This document shows, in pieces, positions 32,687 through 54,797 of a DNA stretch of 64,000 bases. The position numbers and the translations under genes were made by a program. The number at the start of each line of letters is the position of its first letter. Position 1 is the stretch's first letter. The notes beneath the pieces were generated by a model that was not told the origin of the DNA, did not search any database, and saw only the letters and a list, made by a program, of their open reading frames with translations. Origin of the DNA: Elusimicrobiota bacterium. Lineage in GTDB: Bacteria > Elusimicrobiota > Elusimicrobia > UBA1565 > UBA9628. Where the stretch lies: positions 1,450 to 65,449 of the forward strand of contig DATNGC010000060.1 of NCBI GenBank assembly GCA_035606075.1, in the 5' to 3' direction.

Positions 32687-32730
32687 CTAAATGGTTGCGG
32701 GGGCTGGATTTGAACCAGCGACCTCAAGGT
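32687..32730. repeat. att-type direct repeat: partial copy of the tRNA-Met 3' end
   Basis: 32695-32730 (36 nt) is identical to 54724-54759 and 22408-22443. The 8 nt upstream (ctaaatgg) is shared only with the 22400 copy. Confidence 0.85.
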
Positions 32731-33025
32731 CACAGGTCCGATCCTTTCCAGCCCCCGCAATATCTCCGACTTTCAAGAGGCCGGATCCAGTGTTGTTCCG
32801 ATCGTTGGCGCGATCGGCACGGATCCGGGTGCGGCGTGTTGACTCAGCTCACATAACCCTTCATCTCTGGAGGGCCATGCGTTGTTAGCTTACCACGGGA
32901 AACCGCCCTCCGTCAAGGCCCCGACGGGCTCTGACCCCTCCCGCCGCCGCCGGCGTCCCGCCGCGGCCCGCCCAGCTCGTCCCAGGGGGCTTCCAGCTAT
33001 GCTGACAAAAAATGCCGCGAAGGAA

Positions 33026-33424
33026 CTACGCCGGATCGTCCGCAGGAGGATCGGCCTTGAGCCGACTGATCGCGCTGTCGATGAGTCTCTCGGTGTTCGC
33101 CGAGATCGAGCTCAGGCGATACGAGAGCTGACCGCCAAGGGATTCATTGCGTTCGGGCCGCGGAAGTCCTCCGGCCTTGGTGAGGGCGCCTAGGGCGAGA
33201 TCCACCTTGGTCCGAGTCCAGCAGAGATCCTTCATGGCGAGAACGGCGAGCGCATCGGCGCTGATCGAGGCGTCGGCGCCGTCCGGCCAACTTCGCGCGA
33301 TCGCGTTGATCGCGGCGAGGATATCCCATTCCCTCTTGCCGCAGCCCTTGAGCACGTGCTCCATGAATTTCTCTGTGAGTTCGATGGGAGCGTCCGCGGG
33401 GAGATCGTCAAATTCGTCATTCAT
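33026..33424 (-). CDS. Hypothetical protein (only leftward gene at the left end of element B)
   Basis: 132-aa acidic ORF, divergent from the rightward gene block. The position is typical of a lysogeny regulator, but no HTH was recognised. Confidence 0.4.
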   Translation of the reverse strand: MNDEFDDLPADAPIELTEKFMEHVLKGCGKREWDILAAINAIARSWPDGADASISADALAVLAMKDLCWTRTKVDLALGALTKAGGLPRPERNESLGGQLSYRLSSISANTERLIDSAISRLKADPPADDPA

Positions 33425-33454
33425 CCGGCGATTCTACAAGTTAGAGGCCGTCGC

Positions 33455-34327
33455 GTGAAGAAAGCCTCCCGCCCGATGTGGGCCGATCCGGCCACGCTGC
33501 CGCGCAAGATCCAGCGGGATCTCGAGCTCAACAAGCGCGCGCCGGCGCGCTTCCATTTCACCGAGGGCGAGAACGCCCGCCGGCTCGTGATCATGGAGCA
33601 GTTCGAGGCGATCGTCCGCGATGGCTGGTGGACGGCGGAGGAGGTCTACGAGCTCAAGCCGATGGAGGAGCGCGTGCTGCGCCTGATTCTGCGCGTGAAG
33701 CTGCTCCTCGAGGACTTCCGCGGCGATCTCACCGCGGCGTCGATCGCTCACTTCCTGCGCTGCAAGGACCCGCGCGCGGTGCAGCTGGCGATCCGCCGCC
33801 TCGAGGCCGTCCAGCTGATTGAGGTCGACCGCGTGCGGCGGGCGATCTCCGAGATCCACGTCAGCAACTTCCTGTACGAGCCTGCGAGGCCGCAGCGCCG
33901 GCGAAAGGGCCAGGCGGCCGGAATGCCGGCCGAACGCGCCAGGGCGACCCCTCAGAAGCAGCGGGAGACCCATCACCGCGAGATCTCCGCGTGCGCCGAG
34001 CGATTCGCCGCGGAACGCGCCCTGCGCGCGGCGCAGCTCGTCGCTGAAACGAATAAAAATTCGGAGCACATATCAGGCAAACAGAGTTCTGAAAGAACTC
34101 CCTACCCTCTTTTCGCCGCTGCGCCGGCCGCGGCCGCCGGCGGCCCCCCTAGTACCCCCGACGACAACGGCACGGAAGAAAGGAAACGTCTCGGCGGCTA
34201 CGCCGCCTCGCCTGAACCTTCCTACGGCAACGACAACGATAGAACGGCAACGTCACAGGGAATCCAACGACATAGCCGCGCTTTGATGCTGATGGTGCCG
34301 CTTCAGATCCTGGGGCCTCCCGAGTAG
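33455..34327 (+). CDS. Hypothetical protein, possible winged-helix replication/regulatory protein
   Basis: GTG at 33455 or ATG at 33476. The segment LRCKDPRAVQLAIRRLEAVQLIEVD looks like a winged-helix recognition unit. The C-terminal third is low-complexity. Confidence 0.45.
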   Translation: MKKASRPMWADPATLPRKIQRDLELNKRAPARFHFTEGENARRLVIMEQFEAIVRDGWWTAEEVYELKPMEERVLRLILRVKLLLEDFRGDLTAASIAHFLRCKDPRAVQLAIRRLEAVQLIEVDRVRRAISEIHVSNFLYEPARPQRRRKGQAAGMPAERARATPQKQRETHHREISACAERFAAERALRAAQLVAETNKNSEHISGKQSSERTPYPLFAAAPAAAAGGPPSTPDDNGTEERKRLGGYAASPEPSYGNDNDRTATSQGIQRHSRALMLMVPLQILGPPE

Positions 34328-34429
34328 GCCTGCGGCTCTCCTGGCGATCGGCCAGGGGCCGGCGGCGTGAGCTCTGACCGCCGCCGGCCAAAGCCGGATT
34401 TCCACGTCGTAAATCGAGAGGTGAGTGCC

Positions 34430-34675
34430 ATGGCCGGAAAAGTTTTGTTCAACGAGGGCGGGCTGCACATCGCAGAGTCGGGCCCGAACGTCCTCGTCAC
34501 GGTGACGCGCGCGGATCGCGCGAGCATGACGGTCGAGGTCATCGAGGGCAACGCGCGCCGCGCCGGCCTGGCGCTGCGCCGGTGGGTGCGCGAGCGCAAG
34601 GAAGCTCGAGGCGACACGCCCCGCGGCCGCGAGGCGGCCGAGCGGCGCCGCGCTCGAGCGGGAGCGGCCGGATGA
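34430..34675 (+). CDS. Hypothetical small protein
   Basis: ATG at 34430 is preceded by gagagg. It ends in an ATGA overlap with the next ORF. Confidence 0.4.
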   Translation: MAGKVLFNEGGLHIAESGPNVLVTVTRADRASMTVEVIEGNARRAGLALRRWVRERKEARGDTPRGREAAERRRARAGAAG

Positions 34676-34887
34676 CCGCCGCGGAGATCGTGCTCGAGTT
34701 CGCGCGGCTGCACCGCGGCAAGATCGTCACGCCGACGATCGTGCAGGCCTGGGCTCAGACGAGGAACCAGCGCGTGAGCGCCTCGGCGCTCGCCGAGCAG
34801 ATGCGGCGGAAGTTCACGCCGTTCCGCCCGGGCGCGTTCGTCGTGAGCCCGAAGCCGTTCCCGTGGCCGCAGGGCAAGCTGCTGTGA
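34672..34887 (+). CDS. Hypothetical small protein
   Basis: ATG at 34672 overlaps the upstream stop (ATGA). 71 aa. Confidence 0.4.
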   Translation: MTAAEIVLEFARLHRGKIVTPTIVQAWAQTRNQRVSASALAEQMRRKFTPFRPGAFVVSPKPFPWPQGKLL

Positions 34888-34906
34888 CGACGTCCAGGAG
34901 GACGCG

Positions 34907-35107
34907 ATGAAGATCATGCTGGCCGCGGCGATCGCCGCGGCGCTGTCGGGCTGCGCCGGCGTCGTGCGCGAGGATCAGGTGCCGGTTCGTGAGCTGAAGA
35001 ACGGGAGCGCGATCGTGCTGACGATCGTGGAGGATCCCGTGACGCGCGTGCGCTGCTTCATCGCCTATCCGGGCATGACGTGCCTGCAGCCGGAGCCGGC
35101 CAAGTGA
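34907..35107 (+). CDS. Small lipoprotein, hypothetical
   Basis: MKIMLAAAIAAALSGCAG has a lipobox (LSGC). Confidence 0.45.
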   Translation: MKIMLAAAIAAALSGCAGVVREDQVPVRELKNGSAIVLTIVEDPVTRVRCFIAYPGMTCLQPEPAK

Positions 35108-35304
35108 CGCGCGAGATGCTCGAGGCGCTCGCGATCGTCAACGGCCTGCAGCTGCTGCTGGCCGCGTTCCTGGTGTGGTTCCTCGAGCTCACGCCCGAGG
35201 CGCTCGCGTCGGGCAAGGCGATCGCCGACGCGCTGCTGGGCGCGCGCGGCGCGACGTCCAGGACGTCCGGTAATTCGTGGAGGGGGGAGCCCTATGACGG
35301 TTAA
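35104..35304 (+). CDS. Small membrane protein, hypothetical
   Basis: GTG at 35104 overlaps the upstream stop (GTGA). One hydrophobic helix, LQLLLAAFLVWFL. Confidence 0.35.
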   Translation: MTREMLEALAIVNGLQLLLAAFLVWFLELTPEALASGKAIADALLGARGATSRTSGNSWRGEPYDG

Positions 35305-35464: not shown

Positions 35465-35473
35465 ACTGCCCAC

Positions 35474-35501: not shown

Positions 35502-35547
35502 TATCCCGTGATTCCACCGTCGTTATCGTGGACGTGATCGAGGTCAA

Positions 35548-35937
35548 ATGAACGAGAAGAAGCCCGAGCCGACCGACGGCGTGCCGACGTTCCCCGGAGC
35601 TCCGAAGCCCAGCCTGGGCTCGAAGGAAGTCGTCGACCGCGTGGCGGCGTTCACGAAGCCGCGGCTGCCGCCGCCGGTGGACGTGTTCACCGGGAAGAAG
35701 GCCTGCCATCATTTCTTCGTCCCGGTCCACTACTTCGAGCCGTCCGCGCTGAAGGGATCCGCGGACCTGAAGTCGCTCGTCGCGAACACCTCCTGCATCG
35801 GCAAGCTGTGCGCGCTGTGGAACGAAGAGCGCCTCGAGTGCCTCGAGGCGACGAAGCTCAAGGCCGATATCCGCGTGCCGGAGCTGCTCGAGCAGATCGA
35901 CGGCTTCATGCGCATCCACTCGTCCGAGAGCGACTGA
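35548..35937 (+). CDS. Hypothetical protein
   Basis: 129-aa ORF downstream of P1. No domain recognised. Confidence 0.45.
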   Translation: MNEKKPEPTDGVPTFPGAPKPSLGSKEVVDRVAAFTKPRLPPPVDVFTGKKACHHFFVPVHYFEPSALKGSADLKSLVANTSCIGKLCALWNEERLECLEATKLKADIRVPELLEQIDGFMRIHSSESD

Positions 35938-35939
35938 CC

Positions 35940-37109
35940 ATGGCGCAAAAGAAGAAGACGCCTCCCGTGACGCCGCCGCCGGCGGCCGAGGACGTGCCCG
36001 TGCTCGATCCGGATCCCGCGGCCGATGACCTCGAGGCCGACAAGCTCGCCGAGTTTCAATCGAACTTCGGCGGCAAGAACTACCGCATCCGCGTCGAGAA
36101 GTTCGACAAGGAAGAGAACGACTGGGAGATCATCGACCGATTCCCGCTCGACGGCTTCGATCCGATCACGTCGCTCAAGGGCCGCGGCAAGGGGCGCTAT
36201 CGCCTGACGCTGCTCAACGAGAAGGGCAAGTACGTCGAGGGCGGCCGCGAGGAGATCCGCATGGCGGGCCCGCTCGAGGGCGCGCCGGCGGCCGCCGCGG
36301 CGGCGCCGGCGGCCGCGGCGCCGGCCGAGGCGGATCCGCTCAATCATCCCCTCGTCATAAGCGTGCTCGCGATGATGGAGAAGTCGAACACGCAGACGCT
36401 CGAGATGATGAAGGCGCTCGCCTCGAGGCCGGAGCCGGCCAGGTCCTCGAGCTCCGAGGTCCTGGATCTCTTCAAGCAGGTGCGCGGCCTGGCGCCCGAA
36501 GATCCGATGAAGGAGCTCAGCAAGACGATCATGCTGCGCCTGCTCGAGCGCGGCCTTGAGGGCGACGGCGGCGGGGGCGGTGGAGACGGCGGCGGCTTCC
36601 TCAAGGAGCTGCGCGACGGCCTGCTCGCCGCGAAGGAGATGGGGATCCTCGGCGGCCGCCGGCTGCCGGCCGCGGATCCCGCGCCGGCGGCCGCCGCGGA
36701 GCCGGCCGCGCCCCTGCGCGTAAACCTGCAAACCGTGACGGCCGCGCCGCCGCCACCGCCGCCGGCCAAGGAGGCCCAACCCGTGAACGATCCGATCCTC
36801 GAGGGCCTGCGCCCTTACGCGCAGATCTTCCGCCAGCACGCCGAGAACAACGCCGACGTGACCGAGACCGCGAACTACCTCGTCGACGAGCTCTACGCGA
36901 TCGCCTGCCCGCTGATCCGCCGGCACAACACGCTCGCGAAGTTCGCCTCCGACGACGCGATCGTGGAGCAGATCGTGAACCGCGCCAAGGATTCCGCGCA
37001 GCTCGAGGCGGTCTTCGCCGCGGCGCCGGAGCTCGCGCCGCATCGCGACTGGTGCTCGAAGGTCGTCGCGAAGGCGATCGAGATCCTCAATAACCCGGGG
37101 AACGAATGA
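35940..37109 (+). CDS. Hypothetical protein with Ala/Pro/Gly low-complexity linkers
   Basis: ATG at 35940 (MAQKKKTPPV), 389 aa. It has a globular N-domain (NYRIRVEKFDKEENDWEIIDRFPLDGFD), GGGGGGDGGG and poly-Ala/Pro linkers, and a helical C-domain. Confidence 0.5.
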   Translation: MAQKKKTPPVTPPPAAEDVPVLDPDPAADDLEADKLAEFQSNFGGKNYRIRVEKFDKEENDWEIIDRFPLDGFDPITSLKGRGKGRYRLTLLNEKGKYVEGGREEIRMAGPLEGAPAAAAAAPAAAAPAEADPLNHPLVISVLAMMEKSNTQTLEMMKALASRPEPARSSSSEVLDLFKQVRGLAPEDPMKELSKTIMLRLLERGLEGDGGGGGGDGGGFLKELRDGLLAAKEMGILGGRRLPAADPAPAAAAEPAAPLRVNLQTVTAAPPPPPPAKEAQPVNDPILEGLRPYAQIFRQHAENNADVTETANYLVDELYAIACPLIRRHNTLAKFASDDAIVEQIVNRAKDSAQLEAVFAAAPELAPHRDWCSKVVAKAIEILNNPGNE

Positions 37110-37309
37110 ACGACCAGTTCACGATCGACCTGTACGACGGCAAGAAGAAGAAGCGCCTGATCATGGATCCGGCGGATCCCGTGAGCATGGGCAAGTATTT
37201 TCAGATGATGATGGCGCCTACGTGGACGCGCATCGTGTTTAGCCGGCCGCGGCCGAAGAAGCTGCCGGCGCCGGCGAAGGGCGTCGTCCGATCGTTCCTC
37301 GAGGGCTGA
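37106..37309 (+). CDS. Hypothetical small protein
   Basis: 67 aa, with ATGA overlaps on both sides. Confidence 0.4.
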   Translation: MNDQFTIDLYDGKKKKRLIMDPADPVSMGKYFQMMMAPTWTRIVFSRPRPKKLPAPAKGVVRSFLEG

Positions 37310-37830
37310 TGCCTTACAACATCTCGGGCCTGCAGCCGGGCGACAACGGGATCACGGAGACGGTCAACGCCATGGTCACCGCGGTGAAGTGGTCGCTGCA
37401 GCACTACGACCTGCGCGCGCGCGCCGAGCTGCTGATCGCGAGCTGCCAGGAGCGCGACGAGCTCTGCGAGGTCCGCTCGATCTTCAAGTGGGTGCTCGCG
37501 CATTTTCGCTACGTCCGGGATCCGCGCTTCCTCGAGATGTTCAAGAGCCCCGAGATCGTCGACCAGGAGATCAGCGCGCGCGGGCAGTTCCAGGGCGATT
37601 GCGACGACGTCTCCGGATATCTCGCCGCGCTGCTTCTGTCGATCGGCTATCCGGTGAAGTTCGTCGTGATCAACGTGGTCGGCCAGGGCGACGACTTCCG
37701 GCACATCTATATGAAGGTGTACCTGCCGCGCTCGAAGGGCTGGATGGCGCTCGAGGCGACCGCGCGCCTGCAGCCGGCGGGCTGGGAAGCGCCCAATGGC
37801 GGGCGCGTTCGCGAATATCCGGTTTTATGA
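37309..37830 (+). CDS. Transglutaminase-like cysteine protease fold protein
   Basis: GDCDDVSGYLAALLLSIGYP, then FRHIYMKVY, then WMALEAT. This is the Cys / His / acidic order and spacing of the transglutaminase-core family. Confidence 0.6.
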   Translation: MPYNISGLQPGDNGITETVNAMVTAVKWSLQHYDLRARAELLIASCQERDELCEVRSIFKWVLAHFRYVRDPRFLEMFKSPEIVDQEISARGQFQGDCDDVSGYLAALLLSIGYPVKFVVINVVGQGDDFRHIYMKVYLPRSKGWMALEATARLQPAGWEAPNGGRVREYPVL

Positions 37831-37976: not shown

Positions 37977-39881
37977 GTGCTCTACGGACTCGACTCGGCT
38001 GCAGCGCGCGCGGAGATCTTCGATCCGACCGGACTCGGCGCGACCGTTCCCCACGCGGCGAACATCCGGACGACGACCGGCGGCGGCTTCGGCGTGCAGG
38101 CGGTCGGCGGCGGCGGCGCTCCCGGCGACTCGAGCGGATCTCCGGCAGCGGGCTCGGTCGGCTCGAGCTTCCGGCCGGTCGGCCGCAACACCGCGATCTA
38201 CACGACGACCGTGAAGGGCCGCGTCTTCGCGCGCAATCGCTTCCAGCCGACGGCGCAGGGCCCGCGCGTCACCGAGGGCTTCGGGCTCTCCGGCCTGGGT
38301 GCCACGGTGCCCCACGCCGCGAACATCCGCACGAGCCAGCACGGCGGCTTCGGCGTGGCGGCGATCGGCGGCGGCGGCGCCGCGGGCGACGCCGGCGGAT
38401 CTCCCGCGGCGGGATCCAGCGGCTCGGCCTTCCGGACGGTCGGCCGCAACACGGCCGTCTTCAACTCTAAAGGGGAAAAGCGCACGTTCGCCGGCAACCA
38501 TTATTCGCCGTCCGCGCAGGGCTCGCGCGCGATCCCGCAGTTCGGCGGCGCCGGCGGCGGCTTCGGCCTGTCCGGCGATCGCGCGGATCTCGCCCCGAGC
38601 GACGGCGTCGGCCTCGCCGGCTTCTTCGGCTGGCTCGGCAGCCGGCTCACGCCTCCCGGCGGCAAGATCCGCCGCGTGCAGCCGTTCGTGGAGCTCGTCT
38701 CGCCGGTCTACCGCCGCCGGCGCGCGAGCCCGCCGCCGCCCGCGGTGCCCGACGTCCCGCCCGGCGGGCCCGGGATCCGGCCGACCTCGAACACGATCGG
38801 CGGGCCGATCCCCGGAGGCCTCAGCGGCGACCGCGCGGATCTCGCGCCGAGCGACGGCACGGGCCTCTCCGGCGGCATCCTCGGCTGGATCAGCCAGCGT
38901 TTCATCCCGCCCGGCGGAAAGCTCAACCGGATCACGCCGATCCCGGCGAGCTGGCGCGCGATCGTTCCCAACGCGATCAAGACGCCGCTCCGTTATTACG
39001 GCGCGGCCGTGCAATCGACGTTCTTCCCGATGCTCAGCGGCCCGCAGCAGCGCCGCATGTTCGGCCTGTCTCCGTCCGAGTCGGGTGTGTTCGAGAAGTG
39101 GCAGCAGATCATGCTGCCGATCGACGCGACGATCGTGACGCTCGGCATGACGAGCTACGCGACGGGCATCGGCCCGTTCGCGTCGACGGTGACGAAGGTC
39201 CCGTACACGAGCCTGGCGCCGGTGACCTTCACGCCCGGGCAATCCGCCTCTCTTATCGCCGGCGACTTCGGGACGACGACCGGCCAGGCCGCGGCGCTCA
39301 CGGCGCCGGCGAACCTCGTCGTCTCCGCGGCGCCGGCGACCTCTCCCGGGATCTTCACCGCGGCGCTGCCCTCGACCATGATGACGCCCATGCAGGCGTC
39401 CGCGGCGCTTACCGCCGGCGACTTCGGCGCGACGGCCGGCACGAACGCGGTCCTCGCCGGCGTGGCCACGACGCCGGCGCAGGCGGCCGCGAACATCGCC
39501 CAGGGCGGCTCCGGCGCCGGCGCGCCCGGCTTCCTGGCGAAGCTCGGCGACCTGGCGCTGGCCGGCGGCAAGTTCGTCGGCACGACCGCCGTCACGACCG
39601 CCGCGAGCCTGGCCCTGCAGCGCGCCATGATGCCCGGAGGCGGGCCGCAGGATCAGCCCGTGGGCCAGGGCGGCGTCCCGGTCTACGCGGCCAGCGGCGG
39701 CCCCCAGGGGCAGCAGATCGTGCCCATGGGCGGCGGCAGCGCGGGCGGCGGCGGCGACGCCGGCGCGCAGCCGGAGCTCGCCGGCGTCGGCCTGCCGGTC
39801 ATGCTGGCGGCCGGCGCGATCGGCGTCGGAGCTCTCGTCATGCTCAAGCGCCGGCGCCGCGCCAAGCGGGGCCCGCGATGA
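37977..39881 (+). CDS. Gly-rich repeat protein with C-terminal transmembrane anchor (virion membrane or vertex protein candidate)
   Basis: GTG start; the true start is uncertain. Two tandem repeat pairs: GLGATVPHAANIRT..GGGFGV.A.GGGGA.GD..GSPAAGS x2 and GLSGDRADLAPSDG.GL.G..GW x2. The C-terminus is GLPVMLAAGAIGVGALVMLKRRRRAKRGPR. Confidence 0.55.
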   Translation: MLYGLDSAAARAEIFDPTGLGATVPHAANIRTTTGGGFGVQAVGGGGAPGDSSGSPAAGSVGSSFRPVGRNTAIYTTTVKGRVFARNRFQPTAQGPRVTEGFGLSGLGATVPHAANIRTSQHGGFGVAAIGGGGAAGDAGGSPAAGSSGSAFRTVGRNTAVFNSKGEKRTFAGNHYSPSAQGSRAIPQFGGAGGGFGLSGDRADLAPSDGVGLAGFFGWLGSRLTPPGGKIRRVQPFVELVSPVYRRRRASPPPPAVPDVPPGGPGIRPTSNTIGGPIPGGLSGDRADLAPSDGTGLSGGILGWISQRFIPPGGKLNRITPIPASWRAIVPNAIKTPLRYYGAAVQSTFFPMLSGPQQRRMFGLSPSESGVFEKWQQIMLPIDATIVTLGMTSYATGIGPFASTVTKVPYTSLAPVTFTPGQSASLIAGDFGTTTGQAAALTAPANLVVSAAPATSPGIFTAALPSTMMTPMQASAALTAGDFGATAGTNAVLAGVATTPAQAAANIAQGGSGAGAPGFLAKLGDLALAGGKFVGTTAVTTAASLALQRAMMPGGGPQDQPVGQGGVPVYAASGGPQGQQIVPMGGGSAGGGGDAGAQPELAGVGLPVMLAAGAIGVGALVMLKRRRRAKRGPR

Positions 39882-40903: not shown

Positions 40904-40907
40904 ATCC

Positions 40908-41893: not shown

Positions 41894-41903
41894 AGGAGAA
41901 ACT

Positions 41904-45715: not shown

Positions 45716-45716
45716 C

Positions 45717-47157: not shown

Positions 47158-47160
47158 GCG

Positions 47161-47631: not shown

Positions 47632-47643
47632 CAGGAGAACAAA

Positions 47644-48459: not shown

Positions 48460-49146
48460 ATGAAGAGCTCCGACCTGAAACGATTCGGCCCGCTCCTGGT
48501 CCTCATCGGTTACGTGCTTTACCGGGAGTTCACCTCGAGCGGCGACGGCTCCGATAATCCGTTCGGCATAAACACCGACGTCCTAGGAACGAGGACCATG
48601 AGCGTGATCCAAGATTTCAGCGACAAGCTCAGCCCGATCGCGAAGAAGGTCGAGAACGAGACCGGGATCTCGTCGCGCCTCGGCCTGGTCCAGGCGGCGC
48701 TCGAGTCGAGCTACGGATCCTCGAAGCTCTCGAGGCCGGACGCGCAGCTCACGATCCTGCCGGCCAACGTGACGGGGCCGGCGCTGAACATCTTCGGCTT
48801 AAAGTGCGGCAGCGCGTGGCTCAACGCGAAGAAGCCTTACGTGATGCTGCCGACGAAGGACTACTACGCGAAGGGCCAGAAGATGCCCAACGGCGCGATC
48901 GCGACCGTCGACAACCAGGCTCTCGTGTGGCCGGCGCCGTTTCGCGCCTATGGATCCTGGGAAGAGAGCTACCGCGATTGGGCGCGGCTGATGCAGATCC
49001 CGGTGTACGTCCAGGACGGAGCTCTCGCCGCGCTGCAGGCCGACGACCTCGAGAAGTTCGGCCAGGCGCTCGGGATCCACTACGCGCCGAACCAGAACTA
49101 CGCGAAGAGGATCTCCGATCGCGCCGGCGAGATGGGGCTGGCATGA
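48460..49146 (+). CDS. Peptidoglycan hydrolase, glucosaminidase (FlgJ/LytD-type) domain with N-terminal signal-anchor
   Basis: The N-terminal TM is FGPLLVLIGYVLY. The glucosaminidase pattern is LVQAALESSYGSSKL ... NIFGLKCG ... FRAYGSWEESYRDWARLM. Confidence 0.7.
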   Translation: MKSSDLKRFGPLLVLIGYVLYREFTSSGDGSDNPFGINTDVLGTRTMSVIQDFSDKLSPIAKKVENETGISSRLGLVQAALESSYGSSKLSRPDAQLTILPANVTGPALNIFGLKCGSAWLNAKKPYVMLPTKDYYAKGQKMPNGAIATVDNQALVWPAPFRAYGSWEESYRDWARLMQIPVYVQDGALAALQADDLEKFGQALGIHYAPNQNYAKRISDRAGEMGLA

Positions 49147-49388
49147 ATCCCGACGATATCTACAGGTGGGGGAAGGCGCTCGCCGTCGTCGCCGGCGTCG
49201 GCTCGAGCGCGTTCGTGATCGCGAGCGGCGTCGTGCAAAAGATCAACGCCGTGCCCGGGATCCAGAAGGACATCGCCGCGCTGCAGCTGCAGGAGGCCGA
49301 GAAGGCCGGCGAGCTCCGCTTCGTCGTCCGCGCGGTCGAGCGCATGTCGGGATTGAAATATCACCCCGCGCCGGCGAGCTCGAGATAA
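49143..49388 (+). CDS. Small membrane protein (lysis accessory candidate)
   Basis: ATG at 49143 overlaps the upstream stop. TM KALAVVAGVGSSAFVIASGVV. Confidence 0.4.
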   Translation: MNPDDIYRWGKALAVVAGVGSSAFVIASGVVQKINAVPGIQKDIAALQLQEAEKAGELRFVVRAVERMSGLKYHPAPASSR

Positions 49389-49389
49389 G

Positions 49390-49647
49390 ATGCCGGCGCG
49401 ATCGCTCGTCCTCGACGACATCGGCCAGAAGCTGAAGTGGGCCATGATCAGCGAGGTCGTTCATCCGGTGTGCTGCTTCAAGGACGAGGCCGGCCACGAG
49501 TGCAAGAACGCCGCGGCGGCGCTGCTCGTGCTGCATTTCAAGGACGGCCGCGTGGACGTCTTCGCGCTCTGCGAAAAGGATCTCCTCGTCGTGCGCGATC
49601 GCCACGCGATCGAGCGAGAAGACAAGCAGGCGATGTTCTTCTACTGA
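49390..49647 (+). CDS. Hypothetical small protein
   Basis: 85 aa with 4 Cys (VCC..C..C). Confidence 0.35.
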   Translation: MPARSLVLDDIGQKLKWAMISEVVHPVCCFKDEAGHECKNAAAALLVLHFKDGRVDVFALCEKDLLVVRDRHAIEREDKQAMFFY

Positions 49648-49655: not shown

Positions 49656-49976
49656 ATGAAGACCTTCCAGGATCTCGCCGCGGTGCAGCTCAAGGCCTCT
49701 CGAGGCAACTGGCGCAAGGCCGTGCTCGAGCTCCGCGGCGCCGCGCGCCTCGTCCATGACAAGGCCTGGCGCCGGCAGCTGCAGCGCGCGGCCGCGCAGA
49801 TCCTCCGCTGGCGCCTCGAGGCGCTGCGCTCGAGGCGGCTCAAGAACCCGCTGCCCAAGCGCGCGGCCGCGGTGATCCGCCGCGAGATCCTGCGCCACAT
49901 CGGCGACGGCCGGCCGCAGCGCGTCGCGCTCGAGCTCGCCTACAAGTACGCGCGCCGAAAGGGCCTGGTCGACTAG
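49656..49976 (+). CDS. Hypothetical basic helical protein
   Basis: ATG at 49656. 106 aa, Arg-rich. Confidence 0.35.
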   Translation: MKTFQDLAAVQLKASRGNWRKAVLELRGAARLVHDKAWRRQLQRAAAQILRWRLEALRSRRLKNPLPKRAAAVIRREILRHIGDGRPQRVALELAYKYARRKGLVD

Positions 49977-49979
49977 ACC

Positions 49980-50210
49980 ATGGCGGATCCGGAGCCGATC
50001 GAGGCCGAGCTGGTCGACGAACCCGCCCCGCGCCGGCGCGCGGCCGCGGAGCCGAAGAAAGAGGCGGCGCCGCTGCGCGTGGAGCTCGACGCCTGGCCGA
50101 AGCTGCTGCGCGCGCGCTGCGTGATCACGGAGCGGGGAAAACGTCGCGAACTCACGCTGGACGGCTCGCTCGTCGCGATTCTGCTCAACTACCTCAGCAC
50201 GCTGCGCTGA
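49980..50210 (+). CDS. Hypothetical small protein
   Basis: 76 aa. Confidence 0.35.
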   Translation: MADPEPIEAELVDEPAPRRRAAAEPKKEAAPLRVELDAWPKLLRARCVITERGKRRELTLDGSLVAILLNYLSTLR

Positions 50211-50262
50211 CGCCGGCGCCGCGGCCGTCCGACGGGCCAGATGACGATTTTATGAAGGCCAT

Positions 50263-50291
50263 TTGACAAAAAAACTACTAGGGTGTAGAAT
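50263..50291 (+). promoter_or_regulatory. Sigma70-like promoter candidate P4 of element B
   Basis: TTGACA, 17 nt, TAGAAT. It sits in a 190-nt gap that contains an A-tract. Confidence 0.55.
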
Positions 50292-50406
50292 CGGAGGCGT
50301 TGAATCAGATACGTGCCCTTGGCGGGGCAAACGTCGGAGACGTCCTCTCGCTTTTCGTGCCTCCTCGAGGCGCGCCCCGCCAGCTGTCAACGGCGGGGGC
50401 GCCTGA

Positions 50407-50787
50407 GTGACGGCGAGAATCCCCCAAGGCTTCAAGGCCAGCTGCAGCTGCTGCCGCCAGCGCGCCGCGCGCGCGACCGATTACTGCCCGGGCTGCCGGC
50501 GCGTCGTGTGCGCCGCCTGCGCCGCGCTGGACGGCCTCACGGCTCACCGGCCGCACGCTTTGACCGATCACGCCGGCTGGAAGGCCCACGGCGGCCGCCG
50601 GCCGGCGTCCTGGGGATCTCCGAAGGGGCGGGCTTCCGCGGTTAATGGAGCTCCGCGGCGGCCCGCCCCGGGGGCCGTGGTCGTGAGCTCCTGCAGCCTG
50701 CCGGGCGGCGTCAAGATCCTGCGGCCGGCGCTCGAGCACCTGATCCGCGCGCGGCTGCGCGCCGACGCGGTCGGAGGAACGCTGTGA
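50407..50787 (+). CDS. Cys-rich (zinc-ribbon-like) small protein
   Basis: CSCC..x10..CPGC..x4..CAAC near the N-terminus. 126 aa. Confidence 0.4.
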   Translation: MTARIPQGFKASCSCCRQRAARATDYCPGCRRVVCAACAALDGLTAHRPHALTDHAGWKAHGGRRPASWGSPKGRASAVNGAPRRPAPGAVVVSSCSLPGGVKILRPALEHLIRARLRADAVGGTL

Positions 50788-51095
50788 AGATCGCGATCAA
50801 GAGCCCCAGGATCTATCCGCGGCCGTTCGACGCGCCTCGAGCCGAGCCCGAGGGCCGCTGCTGCGTGGCGCTGAGCGACAACGAGGCCGTCGGCGCGATC
50901 GTCTTCGACCGCGGCCGCGGCTGCTTCACGATCGTCAACCCGGCGCAGGTCGCGGTCGTGTGCCTGACCGGCGCCGTGACGTTTCCCGGCCGGCTGATGA
51001 TCTCGTTTTGCCCTTACTGCGGCTTTCAATGGAACACGATCGCCGAGCAGAACGTGATCCTCACGCCACGGCCGCAGGAGAAGCCCCAATCATGA
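50784..51095 (+). CDS. Hypothetical small protein with C-terminal CPYC
   Basis: 103 aa, with ATGA overlap on both sides. Confidence 0.4.
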   Translation: MKIAIKSPRIYPRPFDAPRAEPEGRCCVALSDNEAVGAIVFDRGRGCFTIVNPAQVAVVCLTGAVTFPGRLMISFCPYCGFQWNTIAEQNVILTPRPQEKPQS

Positions 51096-51748
51096 ACGTC
51101 GCCACCGCGGCGGCGCCGGCGTCGATCGACGTCGTGAGCGCTTTCTGTTATAGCGCCGCCTGCAGGGGCGTCGATCGCGTGTGGAAGCGCGCGCTGCCGA
51201 CGTCCTCGGTCTACGCCTGCAGCAGCTGCGATCGCACGCGGGAGTTCTCGAGCGATCAGCCGGGATCCGCCGCGGGGGGGGGCAGCTCGAGCACCCCGGC
51301 GCCGGCGGCCGCGGCGGCGCCGGCCACGATTTCGCAAACGGTCAAATCGACCAGGAAGGAACGAACCATGCCCGATGAAACGAAGTTCAAGAGATCGCCG
51401 CTGCAGAGCGCGATCGTCGAAGCCGTGAAAGAGCAGCTCGTCGCCATCCGCGCCGAGATCGACGACCTCAAGAAGGATATCCGCGAAATCGGAAAGGGCG
51501 ACGGCGATCGCGACCTCGAGCGCAAGCTGGACGAGAAGCTCGAGCGCGAGATCCCGGAGCTCGTCACGCGCGCGGTCGTGCAGATGCTCGCGACGCCGGC
51601 CGGCGCCGTGCCGGCCAGGTCGAAGCGCGCCGCGGCCTCGAGCTCGGCCGAGGACGACGCCGGCGACGGCGATTGCGGCCACAAGAACAACCTGAAGAAG
51701 TGCGCGGGCTGCAGGGCCAAGCGCGCCGCGGCCGCCACGGAGAGCTGA
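51092..51748 (+). CDS. Hypothetical protein (Cys pairs at both ends, coiled-coil middle)
   Basis: ATG at 51092. It contains the G9 tract at 51274-51282, which codes AAGGGSS. An internal ATG at 51368 could be a second start. Confidence 0.4.
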   Translation: MNVATAAAPASIDVVSAFCYSAACRGVDRVWKRALPTSSVYACSSCDRTREFSSDQPGSAAGGGSSSTPAPAAAAAPATISQTVKSTRKERTMPDETKFKRSPLQSAIVEAVKEQLVAIRAEIDDLKKDIREIGKGDGDRDLERKLDEKLEREIPELVTRAVVQMLATPAGAVPARSKRAAASSSAEDDAGDGDCGHKNNLKKCAGCRAKRAAAATES

Positions 51749-51750
51749 CC

Positions 51751-51870
51751 ATGCCCGACCAACCTGCCGTCCCGATGGGCGCCGGCGCGAAGACCGCCGT
51801 CGGCGTCGTCATCGGCGTGATCGCGCTCGTGTTCCTCGGGATCCTGTTCACGACGCCGGTCGATCACTGA
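51751..51870 (+). CDS. Possible 39-aa membrane peptide
   Basis: MPDQPAVPMGAGAKTAVGVVIGVIALVFLGILFTTPVDH. Confidence 0.3.
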   Translation: MPDQPAVPMGAGAKTAVGVVIGVIALVFLGILFTTPVDH

Positions 51871-52106
51871 TGAACACCCCGCGCCAGATTTGGGAGACGC
51901 CGGAGCTCCTCGAGTACGTGACCGGAGAGGACGACGCGATGCTCGAGGCCGAATGCGCGCCGATCGGCGCGTGCTGGAAATCCGACTGTTGCGGCGCGAC
52001 CTCCGCGGACGTCCTCGTGGCGAAGGCGATGATCGGCCTCGCCGGCGAGCTCCTCAACGGGGGGGGGGGCGCTCATGAGCCACGCGAACGAGCGCGCCGC
52101 GGATAG
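51870..52106 (+). CDS. Hypothetical small acidic protein, contains the G11 tract near its 3' end
   Basis: 78 aa. G11 at 52059-52069 codes GGGG. Removing one G would fuse it to the 32-aa ORF 52075-52173. Confidence 0.35.
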   Translation: MNTPRQIWETPELLEYVTGEDDAMLEAECAPIGACWKSDCCGATSADVLVAKAMIGLAGELLNGGGGAHEPRERARRG

Positions 52107-52169
52107 ACTCGAGCTCGAGCGGCGCAAGCTGCAGCTGCCGCTGCCGATCGTCCTGAAGGAGCGCGCGCG

Positions 52170-52427
52170 ATGATGATGGCCGACGAGTTTCTGCAGGCCG
52201 ACGCGATCGCCGCGGCCGAGGTCGTCGCGCCCTGGTGGACGAGGACCGCGCTGCTGCCGGAGCTCCACGAATTTATTCCCCAGGGAATATTAGGCCCTGA
52301 CTGTCGCTGCGGATATTTGGACAAGGACGACCTCGAGGCGTGGAACGCCGACGGAGAGTACCTCTGGATCCACGAGCAGCTGTGGTGCGAGCGCGAGGAC
52401 GTAGACGCCGAGGAGCTCCCCCTGTGA
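52170..52427 (+). CDS. Hypothetical small acidic protein
   Basis: 85 aa. Confidence 0.4.
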   Translation: MMMADEFLQADAIAAAEVVAPWWTRTALLPELHEFIPQGILGPDCRCGYLDKDDLEAWNADGEYLWIHEQLWCEREDVDAEELPL

Positions 52428-52597
52428 CGAATCTCTTCGCCGCCCCGTTTTGCTTTTTCGTCGCGCTGCAGAATCTCCAATGGTTTCTCGAGAAGGGTCT
52501 ATCCCGTGATGCGTGGCTGGGTGTCGTCGGGATATTGATGGCGGGGATCAATCTCGGGATCGCGATCGGCCGCCTCGAGGAGCGCCCCCGTGGCTGA
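52424..52597 (+). CDS. Small membrane protein
   Basis: GTG at 52424 overlaps the upstream stop. Two hydrophobic segments. Confidence 0.35.
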   Translation: MTNLFAAPFCFFVALQNLQWFLEKGLSRDAWLGVVGILMAGINLGIAIGRLEERPRG

Positions 52598-52781
52598 GAA
52601 GATCGAGATCCCGTGCACGAACCCGGACTGTGCTCGATCGAAGCGCAGCTGCCGCCTCGAGCTCGAGCCGGTGGCGGGCGGCATGGTTGAGCTCACGGTG
52701 TTCGGCTGCTCAGGCGACGACGCGACGATTCGGATCCCGTGGTACGAGCTCGTCGAGCTACCCGGCAAGACGGCGCATTAA
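52590..52781 (+). CDS. Hypothetical small protein with CxxxxC and C-pair
   Basis: GTG start. 63 aa. Confidence 0.35.
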   Translation: MAEKIEIPCTNPDCARSKRSCRLELEPVAGGMVELTVFGCSGDDATIRIPWYELVELPGKTAH

Positions 52782-52790
52782 GGAGAAATC

Positions 52791-53027
52791 ATGCCCCACG
52801 ATAAGAACGGAATCGAGATCAAGCCCGGCGACGTGGTTCGCGTGCCGCCGGAGTCCTACATGCCCCACGAGAAGATCGGCGCGGTGCGCAGCGTCAACAA
52901 GGGATCCGACCTGTGCAATCTCTCTGTCGAGGTCATCGGCAAGCAGGCGCAGACCGAGCACTTCGAGAGCCTGCCGGCCGTGCAACTGATCACGGTCTCG
53001 GCGAAGGATTGCGAGAAGCTCGCCTAG
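52791..53027 (+). CDS. Hypothetical small protein
   Basis: 78 aa. An SD-like aaggag lies 8 nt upstream. Confidence 0.45.
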   Translation: MPHDKNGIEIKPGDVVRVPPESYMPHEKIGAVRSVNKGSDLCNLSVEVIGKQAQTEHFESLPAVQLITVSAKDCEKLA

Positions 53028-53097
53028 ATGAACGAACCCAAAGACGCCGGCGACGAGATCCGCGTCGCCGGCGTCTCGATGATCGAGGAGCGCCCCC

Positions 53098-53331
53098 GTG
53101 GCTAAGAGATCCTGCCGGCGCTGCGGCTGCACCGATGCTCGAGCTTGCCCCGACGGCTGCGCCTGGGCCGCTCGAGATCTCTGCACGGCCTGCGTGCCGG
53201 CGATCTACGTCGATTGGGTGTGGCAGCAATATCGCGCGTCGGCCGGCCGGCTCCTCGAGGAGCTCCGAACCTGGGACGAGATCTCCTGCGCGGCCGAGCA
53301 GCTCTACGCCGAGCGCCGAGGCTTCGCGTGA
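53098..53331 (+). CDS. Cys-rich small protein
   Basis: MAKRSCRRCGCTDARACPDGCAWAARDLCTAC has 8 Cys in the first 32 residues. Confidence 0.4.
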   Translation: MAKRSCRRCGCTDARACPDGCAWAARDLCTACVPAIYVDWVWQQYRASAGRLLEELRTWDEISCAAEQLYAERRGFA

Positions 53332-53567
53332 GCGAGATCCTCCGTTGCTGGAAATGCGGAAAACCGCTGACGGGCACGCTGTCGGGCTATACGGCACAGT
53401 GCTGCGGCGCGATCGCGTATTGGCATCGCGAGATCCGCGACCTGCACCTTCAATGGCGGGATCTCACCGACGTCCTGCTCGAGGCCGAGGGGCGCCGGCG
53501 ATCGCGTCACGTCATCGCGGCTATGATCCTCTCGGCGCTCGCCGGCGCGACGATCGCCCTGTGGGCT

Positions 53568-54635
53568 TTACGCGCACGCGACCGCCGCGCGCAGCCGGCG
53601 CGGCCGGCAGCGCGTGTAGATTCGCGTCGTGTCGAGCGAGGCATGGCCGAGCAGCTCCTGGACGGATCGAATGTCGGTGCCGCGATCGAGCAGCCGTGTC
53701 GCGAAGCTGTGGCGCAGGCAGTGGGGCGTGAAGTGACCGAGGCGCAGCCGCGGGTGCTTCCGCAGGAACGCCGGCAGGTAGCGCTCCCGCATGACGCGAT
53801 CGACGCGGCTGCCGTCCACGTGAGTGCCGAGGCCGGCGCGCTGCCGGCCGCGGCCGGGCATGGGCGGAAACATGTACGGCGACTCGAGGCCGCGGCGCTC
53901 GAGCACGGTCGCGCGAACCCGGATCCAGCGCTTCGCGATCTTGCGCAGCTCGGCGTGCATCGGCACGACCCGCCACTTCCCGCCCTTCGCGTTGTCGAAG
54001 ATCACGAAGCCGTCGTCGAAAGCGTAGCTCGCCTCCTTCAGCTGGCAGGTCTCCTGCAGGCGAGCTCCGCAGAAGTAGAGCGTGGCGACGATCAGCGCGT
54101 CGCGCAGCGCGATCATGGGATCTCGAGCGCCCGCGGGATTGGGCTGGATCCGCACGCCGCCCTTGACCGGATGGAATTTGCCCGTCACGCGCGACCGCGG
54201 CGCGCCCTCGGCCGAGCTCGCGATGAACTTGACGAGCTGCACGATCGTCTCGCGGTCCGCGATCGGCCGTGGGTGCATGCGGATCTTCGGCGCCTTGAGC
54301 AGAACGAAGGGATCGCAGTCGAGCTGCCCGAAGGCCAGGCCGTAGCGCCAGAACGCGCGCACGACGTCGTACACCTTGTCGGCCGCCCAATCGGACAGCG
54401 GCGCGCCGGCGCGCTCCTGGTGCCGGCGCGAGAACCACGTGAGGAAGCGGGTCACGAACCGGGCGGCCTCCTGGGCGCTGCCGCAGGGAAGGCGCTGCTG
54501 GTCGAGCTCGTGAAACTCCTCGAGCGCGCGCAGGTAGACGGCGTAGATCCGGATCGTGCTGGGGGCAAGCCGGCGCACGACCTGGCAGTGCTCGAGGTAC
54601 GCTTCAACGAGGGGCCCGATTTTTTTCATGCCCAA
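53568..54635 (-). CDS. Tyrosine recombinase / integrase of element B
   Basis: Catalytic blocks are YFCGARLQETCQL, HCLRHSFATRLLDRGTD and LGHASLDTTRIY. It starts about 90 nt from the tRNA. Confidence 0.85.
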   Translation of the reverse strand: MGMKKIGPLVEAYLEHCQVVRRLAPSTIRIYAVYLRALEEFHELDQQRLPCGSAQEAARFVTRFLTWFSRRHQERAGAPLSDWAADKVYDVVRAFWRYGLAFGQLDCDPFVLLKAPKIRMHPRPIADRETIVQLVKFIASSAEGAPRSRVTGKFHPVKGGVRIQPNPAGARDPMIALRDALIVATLYFCGARLQETCQLKEASYAFDDGFVIFDNAKGGKWRVVPMHAELRKIAKRWIRVRATVLERRGLESPYMFPPMPGRGRQRAGLGTHVDGSRVDRVMRERYLPAFLRKHPRLRLGHFTPHCLRHSFATRLLDRGTDIRSVQELLGHASLDTTRIYTRCRPRRLRAAVACA

Positions 54636-54723
54636 AAGAATAACCCCCGGCCTGTTGCGGAATTCAGGCCGGGGGTTATCGGTTCAGAGGGGGGCCGTCT
54701 TTCCCTCTCTCTCGTCGGAGATC

Positions 54724-54797
54724 TTGCGGGGGCTGGATTTGAACCAGCGACCTCAAGGTTATGAGCCTTGCGAGCTACCGGGCTGCTCTACCCCGCA
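54724..54797 (-). tRNA. tRNA-Met type (anticodon CAU); elongator, initiator or Ile2 (lysidine) identity not resolved
   Basis: The hand-folded reverse complement is TGCGGGG-TA-GAGC-AGCCCGGTA-GCTC-G-CAAGG-CTCATAA-CCTTG-AGGTC-GCTGG-TTCAAAT-CCAGC-CCCCGCA-A. All four stems pair. No CCA is encoded. Confidence 0.85.

Follow-up and report, generated by a model that had tools for sequence, protein, structure and literature searches.

A probable temperate tailless virus of Elusimicrobiota with a PRD1-type capsid protein and no recognisable packaging ATPase

Introduction

Packaging ATPases have been reported for nearly all viruses with a PRD1-type capsid protein. The stretch of Elusimicrobiota DNA analysed here (64,000 nucleotides; hereafter the window) carries an integrated element that an earlier note likened to such viruses while finding no gene for a packaging motor. 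What is this element, and how might its DNA be encapsidated? The note held that double jelly-roll phages invariably encode the ATPase, which overstates the case: exceptions have been published, namely FLiP, with an ssDNA genome, and the Odin group, with genomes of 7-11 kb. These are, however, the only double jelly-roll viruses reported without an ATPase, and their published genomes do not exceed about 11 kb (PMC5894146, PMC8812541).

Results

Integration into a tRNA gene

A repeat search of the window found an exact 36-bp direct repeat, one copy of which is the 3′ end of a tRNA-Met gene (Table 1). Because these exact repeats bound the insertion, we place the provirus at 32695-54759 (22,065 bp), 7 bases short of the right end proposed earlier (54766). 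In-silico removal of 32695-54723 yields a junction that is colinear with three element-free Elusimicrobiota genomes (L023, L024 and L038) at 87-90% nucleotide identity, in alignments that span the tRNA-distal att site. In all three, the host recombinase gene xerL adjoins the tRNA. An identical tRNA-Met occurs in 36 genome contigs, comprising 31 Elusimicrobia, Elusimicrobiota or Endomicrobium MAGs and five titled only 'bacterium'. The integrase translation shows the box I Arg, the HxxR motif and the C-terminal Tyr. The repeats, the tRNA site, the PF00589 integrase and the empty sites in relatives bear out the note's description of an att-bounded element, and show that a tyrosine integrase put it into the 3′ end of tRNA-Met.

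Coding sequence fills 91% of the element, and its genes form 11 four-base start/stop overlaps. Gene calling gave 38 rightward genes, fewer than the roughly 45 ORFs first claimed, and two leftward ones. The largest ORF is indeed 634 aa long (g10, 37977-39881). GC content per 2-kb window is 64-75%, against 65-72% in the high-GC flanks, in keeping with the host match described earlier.

Table 1. Features of the provirus and its integration site (positions in the window)
Feature	Position	Strand	Description and evidence
att repeat distal to tRNA	32695..32730	.	36-bp copy of tRNA-Met 3′ end
gA	33026..33424	-	132 aa, acidic, divergent from g1; GC3 gene call
g1-g5	33455..35304	+	accessory, regulation or replication genes of integrated lineage
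g6, g7	35548..37109	+	conserved core proteins; 129 aa and 389 aa (g7 acidic, low-complexity linkers)
g9	37309..37830	+	transglutaminase-like (papain-fold) cysteine enzyme; PF01841 E 1.9e-8
g10, g11, g12	37977..41582	+	C-terminally membrane-anchored structural proteins; TM segments, pI, repeats
g13, g14	41579..42350	+	104 aa, pI 11; 148 aa, N-terminal TM segment or signal
g15	42360..43226	+	288 aa, pI 12.0, 57 Arg+Lys
g16	43357..44013	+	218 aa, predicted single jelly-roll capsid protein; AF2 and Foldseek
g17	44221..45165	+	314 aa, modelled double jelly-roll capsid protein (MCP); AF2 and Foldseek
g18, g19	45176..45950	+	179 aa and 77 aa, conserved, downstream of MCP
g20	45947..46906	+	319 aa, N-terminal anchor, variable Thr/Gly-rich body; TM segment
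g21, g22, g23	46903..48450	+	membrane proteins (g21, g22); 268 aa, acidic, Ala/Pro-rich tail (g23); TM segments
g24-g26	48460..49647	+	lysis region; conserved in relatives
g27-g38	49656..53331	+	twelve small ORFs, some Cys-rich
Tyrosine integrase	53568..54635	-	PF00589 E 5.5e-27; phrog_1 integrase E 2e-35
tRNA-Met(CAT)	54724..54797	-	ARAGORN; 3′ 36 bases (54724-54759) are the integrase-proximal att repeat

Linear relatives

The genes of the structural module, g6-g26, recur in synteny on metagenomic contigs of 20-24 kb, at 29-70% identity, and these contigs carry a protein-primed DNA polymerase B (PF03175) where the provirus has its integrase. One of them, c1 (23,432 bp), is a complete linear genome, given the perfect 30-bp inverted repeats at its termini, which start at base 1. 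We found 34 MCP homologues, 29-89% identical, of which several lie on contigs of 21-24 kb, and 72 polymerase homologues; of the contigs that carry the latter, 18 are 20.2-24.1 kb long and none is longer. Counted in clusters, the family comprises at least 34 of the MCP and about 50 of the polymerase. Each of the 19 core genes that the provirus shares with the autonomous linear genomes is full length, and their order is unchanged. An independent sample yielded a near-identical copy of g16-g20, and other samples contain a relative whose MCP is at least 90% identical and whose genes run in the same order. No relatives were found in GenBank phages, IMG/VR, PHROGs or PLSDB, nor any description of the virus family in the literature searched, and the family, made up of tailless phages whose capsid protein is of the PRD1 type, appears to be undescribed.

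The comparison shows that the integrating lineage has replaced the polymerase replication module with an integrase and small accessory genes. At the left end, g1-g5 (g4 lipoprotein-like, g5 with one TM segment) gave no tblastn match in the linear relatives; g1 matches neither Pfam nor PHROGs and g2-g5 have no Pfam match. At the right end, g27-g38, for which no homologues were found in the linear relatives, are read as accessory or early genes. The leftward gA has no family match and is not conserved in the linear relatives; its position suggests that it possibly belongs to a lysogeny switch. No replication gene was recognisable in the element by Pfam (all called genes and six-frame ORFs) or PHROGs (20 largest genes).

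Capsid proteins

Structure models were made with AF2 for g16 and g17. The jelly-roll duplication suspected in g17 proved to be that of a double jelly-roll capsid protein. Its model (pLDDT 89.2, pTM 0.87) has PRD1 P3 (E 8e-8), PBCV-1 Vp54 and the STIV coat protein as top Foldseek matches, all at probability 1.0, and also matches the MCPs of the tectiviruses Wip1 and GC1. Against known MCPs the TM-scores, at 0.44-0.50, are moderate, and cellular double jelly-roll proteins such as DUF2961 rank lower in the same list. On this confident model, g17 is a double jelly-roll capsid protein.

Its beta-rich upstream neighbour g16, also singled out earlier, is modelled as a single jelly-roll capsid protein (pLDDT 88.3, pTM 0.84). 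The best Foldseek matches are the SPV1 capsid chain 6oj0_A, SH1 6qt9_h, and circovirus and tymovirus capsids, at a modest E-value of 1.4e-3. With 69-70% identity to c1 and a second linear relative, c2, it is conserved better than any other protein of the module, and has 293 representative homologues. Its fold and gene position suggest that g16 probably forms the pentons. Downstream of the MCP, g18 (52-54% identity to relatives) and g19 (44%) have no profile similarity to g16 or the MCP and no PDB sequence match; they are candidate vertex or minor capsid proteins.

Membrane, enzyme and lysis proteins

The module opens with g6 and g7, which lie just 3′ of the polymerase in the linear relatives, are 35-42% identical to c1 and c2 (g7 41-42%), and have no Pfam, PHROG or PDB sequence match. 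The cysteine enzyme g9 is conserved in all relatives examined (67% identity). Six homologues all retain the Cys of its GDCDD motif, along with a His and a Glu, and g9 is a candidate maturation protease or cell-wall peptidase.

As described earlier, five of the six genes g10-g15 encode hydrophobic membrane segments; four pass the hydropathy threshold and the C-terminal segment of g11 is borderline. The Gly-rich g10 has internal repeats, g11 is 341 aa long, and g12 (224 aa) is coiled-coil-like. All three are conserved in relatives, and the g12 alignment shows that its TM segment is kept. Arg-rich C-terminal tails follow the TM segments of g10 and g12; that of g12 is lineage-specific, found in the window and in L045, and absent from L005, L006, L007 and L048. 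The small proteins g13 (42-51% identity to relatives) and g14 (29-44%) are read as conserved virion or assembly proteins. In g15, a protamine-like, Arg/Lys-rich N-terminal half is joined to a hydrophobic membrane core and a Gly-rich tail, an architecture kept in c1, c2, L007 and L045, which makes it a candidate DNA-condensing membrane protein. The number of TM proteins suggests that the capsid may enclose an internal membrane.

Conservation of g20 in relatives is confined to residues 50-113, and it has no family or PDB match; it may be the receptor-binding spike. Conserved counterparts of g22 and g23 occur in c1, c2 or both. The lysis region includes the glucosaminidase gene predicted earlier (g24, 48460-49146; PF01832 E 4e-14), which also matches PHROG endolysin families, and a small one-TM protein, g25, that appears holin-like.

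Absence of a recognisable packaging ATPase

The motif GxxxxGK[ST] had been reported missing from the plus strand; we widened the search to [GA]xxxxGK[ST] in six frames of the element and again found none. The 'GKT' of g13 sits in a lineage-specific insertion absent from more distant homologues. Nor did the real ORFs of c1, c2, L007 and L002 contain a Walker A motif. Pfam searches of called genes (n=39; E<=0.1) and six-frame ORFs (E<=0.01) gave no match to an ATPase, terminase, portal, HK97 capsid, polymerase or Rep, in agreement with the earlier reading, and PHROGs gave none for the 20 largest genes. Among 115 six-frame ORFs of >=100 aa, Pfam matched only the integrase, the glucosaminidase and the transglutaminase-like enzyme. 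Precomputed Pfam matches of the relatives' genes likewise include no ATPase. These searches show that both the integrated and the linear forms lack a recognisable FtsK/HerA-type or other P-loop ATPase.

Comparison with known virus groups

Tectiviridae (PRD1, Bam35, GC1, Toil-like; Tectiliviricetes) share several features with the element: PRD1 P3 is the best structural match of the MCP, and in both a second capsid protein has a single jelly-roll, many genes for small membrane proteins precede the MCP gene, and a muramidase-type virion or lysis enzyme is present. The element's relatives also have linear genomes that carry terminal inverted repeats; they encode a protein-primed polymerase B, and betatectiviruses are among its best, though weak, matches in GenBank phages. 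However, no protein resembles those of tectiviruses in sequence, either in PHROGs or among GenBank phages, and the element family lacks the FtsK/HerA packaging ATPase, is larger (21-24 kb versus about 15-18 kb), conserves a transglutaminase-fold enzyme and encodes a protamine-like membrane protein. The member in the window, moreover, lacks a polymerase and uses a tyrosine integrase to integrate.

[quoted passage not shown] Its capsid chain 6oj0_A is the best structural match of g16, and it too lacks a packaging ATPase (PMC8812541). Unlike the element, it is an archaeal virus with a single jelly-roll MCP and no double jelly-roll protein (PMC8812541); the two have no sequence relationship and differ in gene content.

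The Odin group (Huginnvirus-like) resembles the element in its double jelly-roll MCP, the lack of a detectable packaging ATPase, sporadic polymerase B and integrase, and the position of a conserved uncharacterised gene directly 5′ of the MCP (PMC5894146). Its genomes, from marine sediment archaea and bacteria, are 7-11 kb and encode ParB and PD-(D/E)XK nucleases (PMC5894146), whereas the element family is 2-3 times larger, bacterial (the integrated member belonging to Elusimicrobiota) and has another gene set. Corticoviridae and Vinavirales prophages (PM2-like, Asemoviridae NO16) are, like the virus proposed here, temperate, tailless, membrane-containing and double jelly-roll, integrate into bacterial chromosomes and package circular DNA, but are about 10-11 kb, use a rolling-circle Rep and keep the packaging ATPase (PMC13552765); the element shows none of these last three features.

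Discussion

Could a packaging motor be present after all? One of g7, g11, g12, g18 or g23 could hide an unconventional NTPase, non-P-loop or extremely divergent, that would fill a preformed procapsid by translocating DNA as PRD1 P9 does. Several conserved proteins of 180-390 aa do lack a family, PDB or structural assignment, and g7 is conserved in position as well as sequence. Nevertheless, P-loop ATPases are among the most easily detected proteins according to Yutin et al. (PMC5894146), and neither the Walker A searches nor Pfam, at either cut-off, revealed an NTPase fold. Further, g7, acidic and with long low-complexity linkers, and the membrane-anchored, coiled-coil-like g11 and g12 are unlike alpha/beta NTPases, and we consider a hidden motor unlikely. 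Slightly less likely still is a motor borrowed from the host (FtsK, HerA-like) or a co-resident helper, the virus being motor-less only in its own genome. The lack of an ATPase from the integrated genome, the complete c1 and the partial relatives examined would fit such borrowing, and a second island in the window does encode AAA-type ATPases (13079-14293 and 19967-22327). These, however, are of AAA_13 and AAA_14/DUF4143 rather than FtsK/HerA types, the linear relatives sit on their own contigs without such partners, and the breadth of the family in MCP and polymerase clusters makes a specific helper unlikely. We know of no virus of the double jelly-roll capsid lineage that uses a host packaging motor.

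The element might also be a defective prophage remnant, or a non-viral integrative island with capsid-like genes, that forms no infectious particles. It has no recognisable replication gene, and cellular double jelly-roll proteins do exist (PMC8812541). Against this stand the full-length, ordered core genes, identical att repeats, intact integrase, dense coding with translationally coupled overlaps, close relatives in independent samples, and structural matches in which viral MCPs outrank cellular enzymes; we regard decay or a non-viral origin as very improbable.

We favour, with reasonable confidence, an intact temperate provirus of a tailless icosahedral virus, probably membrane-containing, of an Elusimicrobiota bacterium. 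The virus is known here from genes alone, and its host only from metagenome-assembled genomes. To our knowledge, motor-less packaging has no experimental precedent in a 22-kb dsDNA virus of the double jelly-roll type, and we are less confident of the encapsidation route that we propose. Rather than being pumped into a preformed shell, the DNA would be condensed by the protamine-like half of g15 and the Arg-rich tails of g10 and g12, and membrane and capsid would then assemble around it and enclose it. It would resemble the route described for the ATPase-less SPV1 and suggested for the Odin and FLiP groups. One structural module serves both protein-capped linear genomes and the integrated form, whose excised genomes are presumably circular; a module common to both fits encapsidation that is independent of DNA ends.

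Integration at a tRNA-Met Gene

The element is a 22,065-bp provirus inserted precisely into a tRNA-Met(CAT) gene. It is bounded by a 36-bp exact direct repeat, the right copy of which forms the 3′ end of that gene, and a tyrosine integrase adjoins the tRNA. Genomes that share this tRNA carry a Xer-like recombinase ~110 bp past it, with 85-89% identity to the recombinase ORF to the left of the element. When positions 32695-54723 are removed in silico, the resulting junction is colinear with three such genomes at 87-90% nucleotide identity, which establishes both the precise insertion and the host origin of the left recombinase. An integrase beside a tRNA, a far-border repeat of the tRNA 3′ end and an empty site are together the features of a tRNA-integrating temperate prophage. 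The exact tRNA-Met sequence is present in 36 genome contigs, 31 of them titled as Elusimicrobia, Elusimicrobiota or Endomicrobium MAGs and five only as 'bacterium'. On the basis of these titles, we assign the host phylum as Elusimicrobiota.

Gene calling gives 38 rightward genes (g1-g38) and two leftward ones (gA and the integrase), with 11 four-base overlaps, a coding fraction of 91% and a largest ORF of 634 aa. The GC content is 64-75% per 2-kb window, similar to the high-GC flanks. An earlier note had described an element bounded by att repeats, carrying an integrase and no ORF longer than 634 aa, and matching its host in GC, all of which holds. Its many gene overlaps were also borne out, but its estimate of about 45 rightward ORFs exceeds the number called.

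Several features of the surrounding locus are recorded with the element (see table). The left recombinase gene was considered as part of the element and rejected, as it adjoins tRNA-Met in empty-site genomes too; it is a conserved host gene. Several Elusimicrobiota genomes have two to three diverged Xer-like paralogues within a few kb of tRNA-Met (loci cited: the recombinase of the window, the empty-site genome L024, and related loci L037, L015, L017 and L028). Further left, a block of 55-62% GC, against 65-72% around it, encodes a second integrase, two ATPases and other proteins. It looks like a separate genomic island, possibly for defence, beside the same tRNA/recombinase hotspot. In the high-GC host flank, a 1175-aa ORF has no Pfam match at E<=0.001.

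Coordinates of features in the window and in related contigs
Feature	Location	Strand	Basis or remark
Element (integrated provirus)	32695-54759		
36-bp direct repeat, left copy	32695-32730		exact
36-bp direct repeat, right copy	54724-54759		exact
tRNA-Met(CAT)	54724-54797	-	
Tyrosine integrase	53568-54635	-	PF00589, E 5.5e-27; phrog_1, E 2e-35
g16, single jelly-roll capsid protein, 218 aa	43357-44013		adjacent to MCP gene; AF2 + Foldseek
g17, MCP, 314 aa	44221-45165		double jelly-roll by AF2 + Foldseek
g24, glucosaminidase-type lysin			Pfam + PHROGs
g10, two pairs of direct repeats	38081-38463; 38558-38873		
Xer-like recombinase	31616-32584	-	host gene
Low-GC block	12000-31500		
AAA_14/DUF4143 ATPase	13079-14293		in low-GC block
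Hypoth_Ymh + FG-GAP protein	17622-18875		in low-GC block
AAA_13 ATPase	19967-22327		in low-GC block
Proteasome-subunit-like protein fused to DUF6941	22614-24356		in low-GC block
Second tyrosine integrase	25882-27270		in low-GC block
1175-aa ORF	8678-12205	+	high-GC host flank
Candidate terminal protein, L005	4941-5675		position + size
Candidate terminal protein, L006	3189-4004		position + size
Candidate terminal protein, L007	2718-3488		position + size
Distant g16 homologue, L050	10001-10918		
Distant g16 homologue, L051	2099-4995		

A Structural Module with Viral Capsid Folds

The predicted fold of g17 is the vertical double jelly-roll that characterises the MCP of Bamfordvirae-type viruses (realm Varidnaviria). 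There are 34 homologues of g17, at 29-89% identity, none of them annotated, and the AlphaFold2 model built from their alignment (pLDDT 89.2, pTM 0.87) consists of two beta-sandwiches in succession. Foldseek against the PDB places PRD1 P3 at the top (E 8e-8), followed by PBCV-1 Vp54, PR772 and the STIV coat protein. Probability is 1.0 for PRD1 P3, Vp54 and the STIV MCP, and cellular double jelly-roll enzymes rank lower than viral MCPs. Matches in BFVD are to tectivirus and giant-virus MCPs, again at probability 1.0.

Immediately upstream, g16 is the best-conserved protein of the module, with 69-70% identity to relatives compared with 55-57% for the MCP. An exhaustive phmmer search with g16 recovered 293 representative homologues. 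Its model, from an 82-sequence alignment (pLDDT 88.3, pTM 0.84), is a confident single jelly-roll, and its best structural matches are the single jelly-roll capsid proteins of SPV1, SH1, circoviruses and tymoviruses. Given this fold, these matches and its adjacency to the MCP gene, g16 is probably the penton protein. The models thus uphold the earlier note, which had seen a jelly-roll-like 314-aa protein flanked by a beta-rich protein of 218 aa. For g18 (179 aa), downstream of the MCP, we do not claim a jelly-roll fold; profile-profile comparison showed no significant similarity between g18 and g16, or between g16 and the MCP.

At least eight proteins (g10, g12, g14, g15, g20, g21, g22 and g25) have TM segments above the hydropathy threshold, and g11 has a borderline hydrophobic segment at its C terminus. 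The number of such proteins indirectly suggests an internal lipid membrane under the capsid. Arg-rich tails end g10 and g12. More strikingly basic is g15 (pI 12, 57 Arg+Lys), in which a protamine-like N-terminal half is followed by a hydrophobic core and a Gly-rich tail, an architecture kept in the aligned relatives. Within g10, two pairs of diverged direct repeats, each spaced ~250-260 nt apart (~122 nt, 82% identical; ~57 nt, 84% identical), show that its Gly-rich N-terminal half is internally duplicated.

Among the remaining genes of the module, g9 encodes a transglutaminase-fold enzyme (PF01841, E 2e-8) whose Cys, His and Glu are invariant in six homologues. Conservation of g20 in tblastn against relatives is confined to a region near the N terminus, as expected of a receptor-binding spike, for which g20 is a candidate. 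The glucosaminidase reported in the earlier note is g24, which together with g25 may form the lysis system. PDB sequence searches with g1, g7, g10, g18 and g20 returned noise only, and a word-indexed homology search with g7, swamped by low-complexity words, gave just three matches.

Relatives with Linear Genomes

Contigs of 21-24 kb that carry homologues of the MCP keep the gene order of the element. Where the element has its integrase, these linear relatives have a left arm of small genes together with a protein-primed DNA polymerase B (PF03175). A profile of this polymerase found 72 homologues, with 18 of their contigs falling between 20.2 and 24.1 kb and none longer. At least 34 MCP clusters and ~50 polymerase clusters make up the clade, and the single jelly-roll protein is common to a wider set of 293 clusters. 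One relative, c1 (SRR14194043_14320; 23,432 bp), is a complete linear genome, as shown by its perfect 30-bp terminal inverted repeat, which starts at base 1. No terminal inverted repeat was found in the relative c2 or across the relatives L007 and L002, and these contigs are probably slightly incomplete.

By tblastn, the element and its linear relatives have g6, g7, g9-g20 and g22-g26 in common; gA, g1-g5, g8, g21, g27-g38 and the integrase are not shared. This pattern identifies the element as an integrating version of a family that otherwise replicates as protein-primed linear DNA.

Some further observations concern these relatives. At 0.5-2 kb upstream of the polymerase, L005, L006 and L007 each encode a protein of 244-271 aa that matches no family; position and size make these candidate terminal proteins. 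The first 15 positions of L007 (21,206 bp) are an Illumina adapter remnant (ACGCTCTTCCGATCT); this may be an artefact of assembly or the place where a linear genome physically ends. More distant homologues of g16 keep the order of single jelly-roll protein, ~300-aa protein and ~176-aa protein. Those of L050 and L051 have N-terminal extensions, reaching up to 324 aa, and a different context, in which the transglutaminase-like gene is absent and the protein upstream has 797 aa; 308-aa and 176-aa proteins still lie downstream. Such homologues hint at a wider unannotated virus assemblage of 293 representative clusters.

No Recognisable Packaging ATPase

An FtsK/HerA packaging ATPase is treated as the hallmark partner of the double jelly-roll capsid. 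No ATPase of this superfamily, as Bamfordvirae-type double jelly-roll viruses carry, was found in the element. The Walker A motif [GA]xxxxGK[ST] is absent from all six frames of the element and from the real ORFs of c1, c2, L007 and L002. In Pfam searches of the 39 called proteins and of all 115 stop-to-stop six-frame ORFs that reach 100 aa, just three proteins had matches: the integrase, the glucosaminidase and the transglutaminase-like enzyme. PHROGs matches to the 20 largest genes fell among the same three. Across these searches no ATPase, terminase, portal, HK97 capsid, polymerase or Rep was found, in agreement with the earlier note, whose observation and interpretation are both supported and extended here. 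Precomputed Pfam matches on the relatives' genes likewise include no ATPase. A 'GKT' in g13 was considered as a degenerate Walker A and rejected, because it sits in a lineage-specific insertion absent from more distant homologues.

How, then, might these viruses package their DNA? We tentatively propose, at somewhat less than even confidence, that this bacterial double jelly-roll clade, with dsDNA genomes of 21-24 kb, uses no NTPase motor, and that DNA is condensed instead on the protamine-like inner-membrane protein g15; maturation of the particle may fall to g9 as a papain-fold protease. With lower confidence, basic cytoplasmic or luminal parts of the membrane proteins g15, g10 and g12 would condense the genome, which would then be enclosed through concerted assembly instead of being pumped. 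The core proteins that remain unmodelled could harbour a cryptic NTPase, which the motif and profile searches make improbable. A motor borrowed from the host or a helper would be compatible with those same searches, and we consider it slightly less probable again. Lastly, the element could be a defective remnant, although the core genes that it shares with the linear relatives are all full length and keep their order, and we regard this as very unlikely.

Comparison with Known Viruses

The element is new at family level among double jelly-roll, tectivirus-like viruses, and its family is notable for the lack of the hallmark ATPase in genomes of 21-24 kb. Tectiviridae have linear dsDNA, terminal inverted repeats and a protein-primed polymerase B. 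The element lacks a polymerase and instead carries att repeats with an integrase; its linear relatives do have the tectiviral features, including PF03175 and the terminal inverted repeat of c1. The relatives' polymerase matches its counterparts in betatectiviruses, phiG2 and autolykiviruses at only ~25% identity, Sato and Sole being among the phages concerned. Sequence homology to Tectiviridae of the kind used for membership (MCP, ATPase or polymerase) was not found: tblastn of the MCP and g16 against 50,697 GenBank phage records gave no match, and PHROGs revealed no tectivirus homology of element proteins. Corticoviridae/Vinavirales have circular dsDNA of ~10 kb, a rolling-circle Rep and a P9-like ATPase, in contrast to the 22-kb element, which has no match to a Rep or ATPase family in any frame. 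The Odin group shares with the element an ATPase-less double jelly-roll, but is set apart by genomes of 7-11 kb.

The literature names just two double jelly-roll groups without an ATPase, the ssDNA virus FLiP and the Odin group with genomes of 7-11 kb (Yutin et al. 2018, PMC5894146; Krupovic et al. 2022, PMC8812541), and SPV1 is an ATPase-less single jelly-roll virus (PMC5894146, PMC8812541). As late as September 2026, a structural paper presented the ATPase as a conserved feature of the whole realm (PMC13552765). Pattern scans for MCP relatives found none in IMG/VR and none in GTDB genomes, whose representatives evidently do not include the genome that the window comes from; whole-element megablast against PLSDB plasmids gave no match. 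A full-text literature search found no paper tying Elusimicrobia to double jelly-roll phages, or Tectiliviricetes to a transglutaminase.

Implications

That this family was not found in IMG/VR (by pattern scan), PHROGs and GenBank phages indicates that marker-based virus discovery may overlook it. One structural module occurs with either of two interchangeable strategies for the genome: replication as protein-primed linear DNA or integration at a tRNA site. Published double jelly-roll exceptions are small, and an ATPase-less bacterial family with 21-24 kb dsDNA would raise the genome size known for motor-less encapsidation two- to three-fold. If true, motor-less concerted assembly in the double jelly-roll lineage is not limited to tiny genomes, and the basic membrane protein g15 offers a concrete candidate mechanism that is open to test. 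Evolutionary scenarios depend on which lineages are without the ATPase (PMC8812541). On the motor-less reading, the family would either be an early branch without the ATPase or have lost it secondarily, and it would add a virus lineage assigned to Elusimicrobiota.
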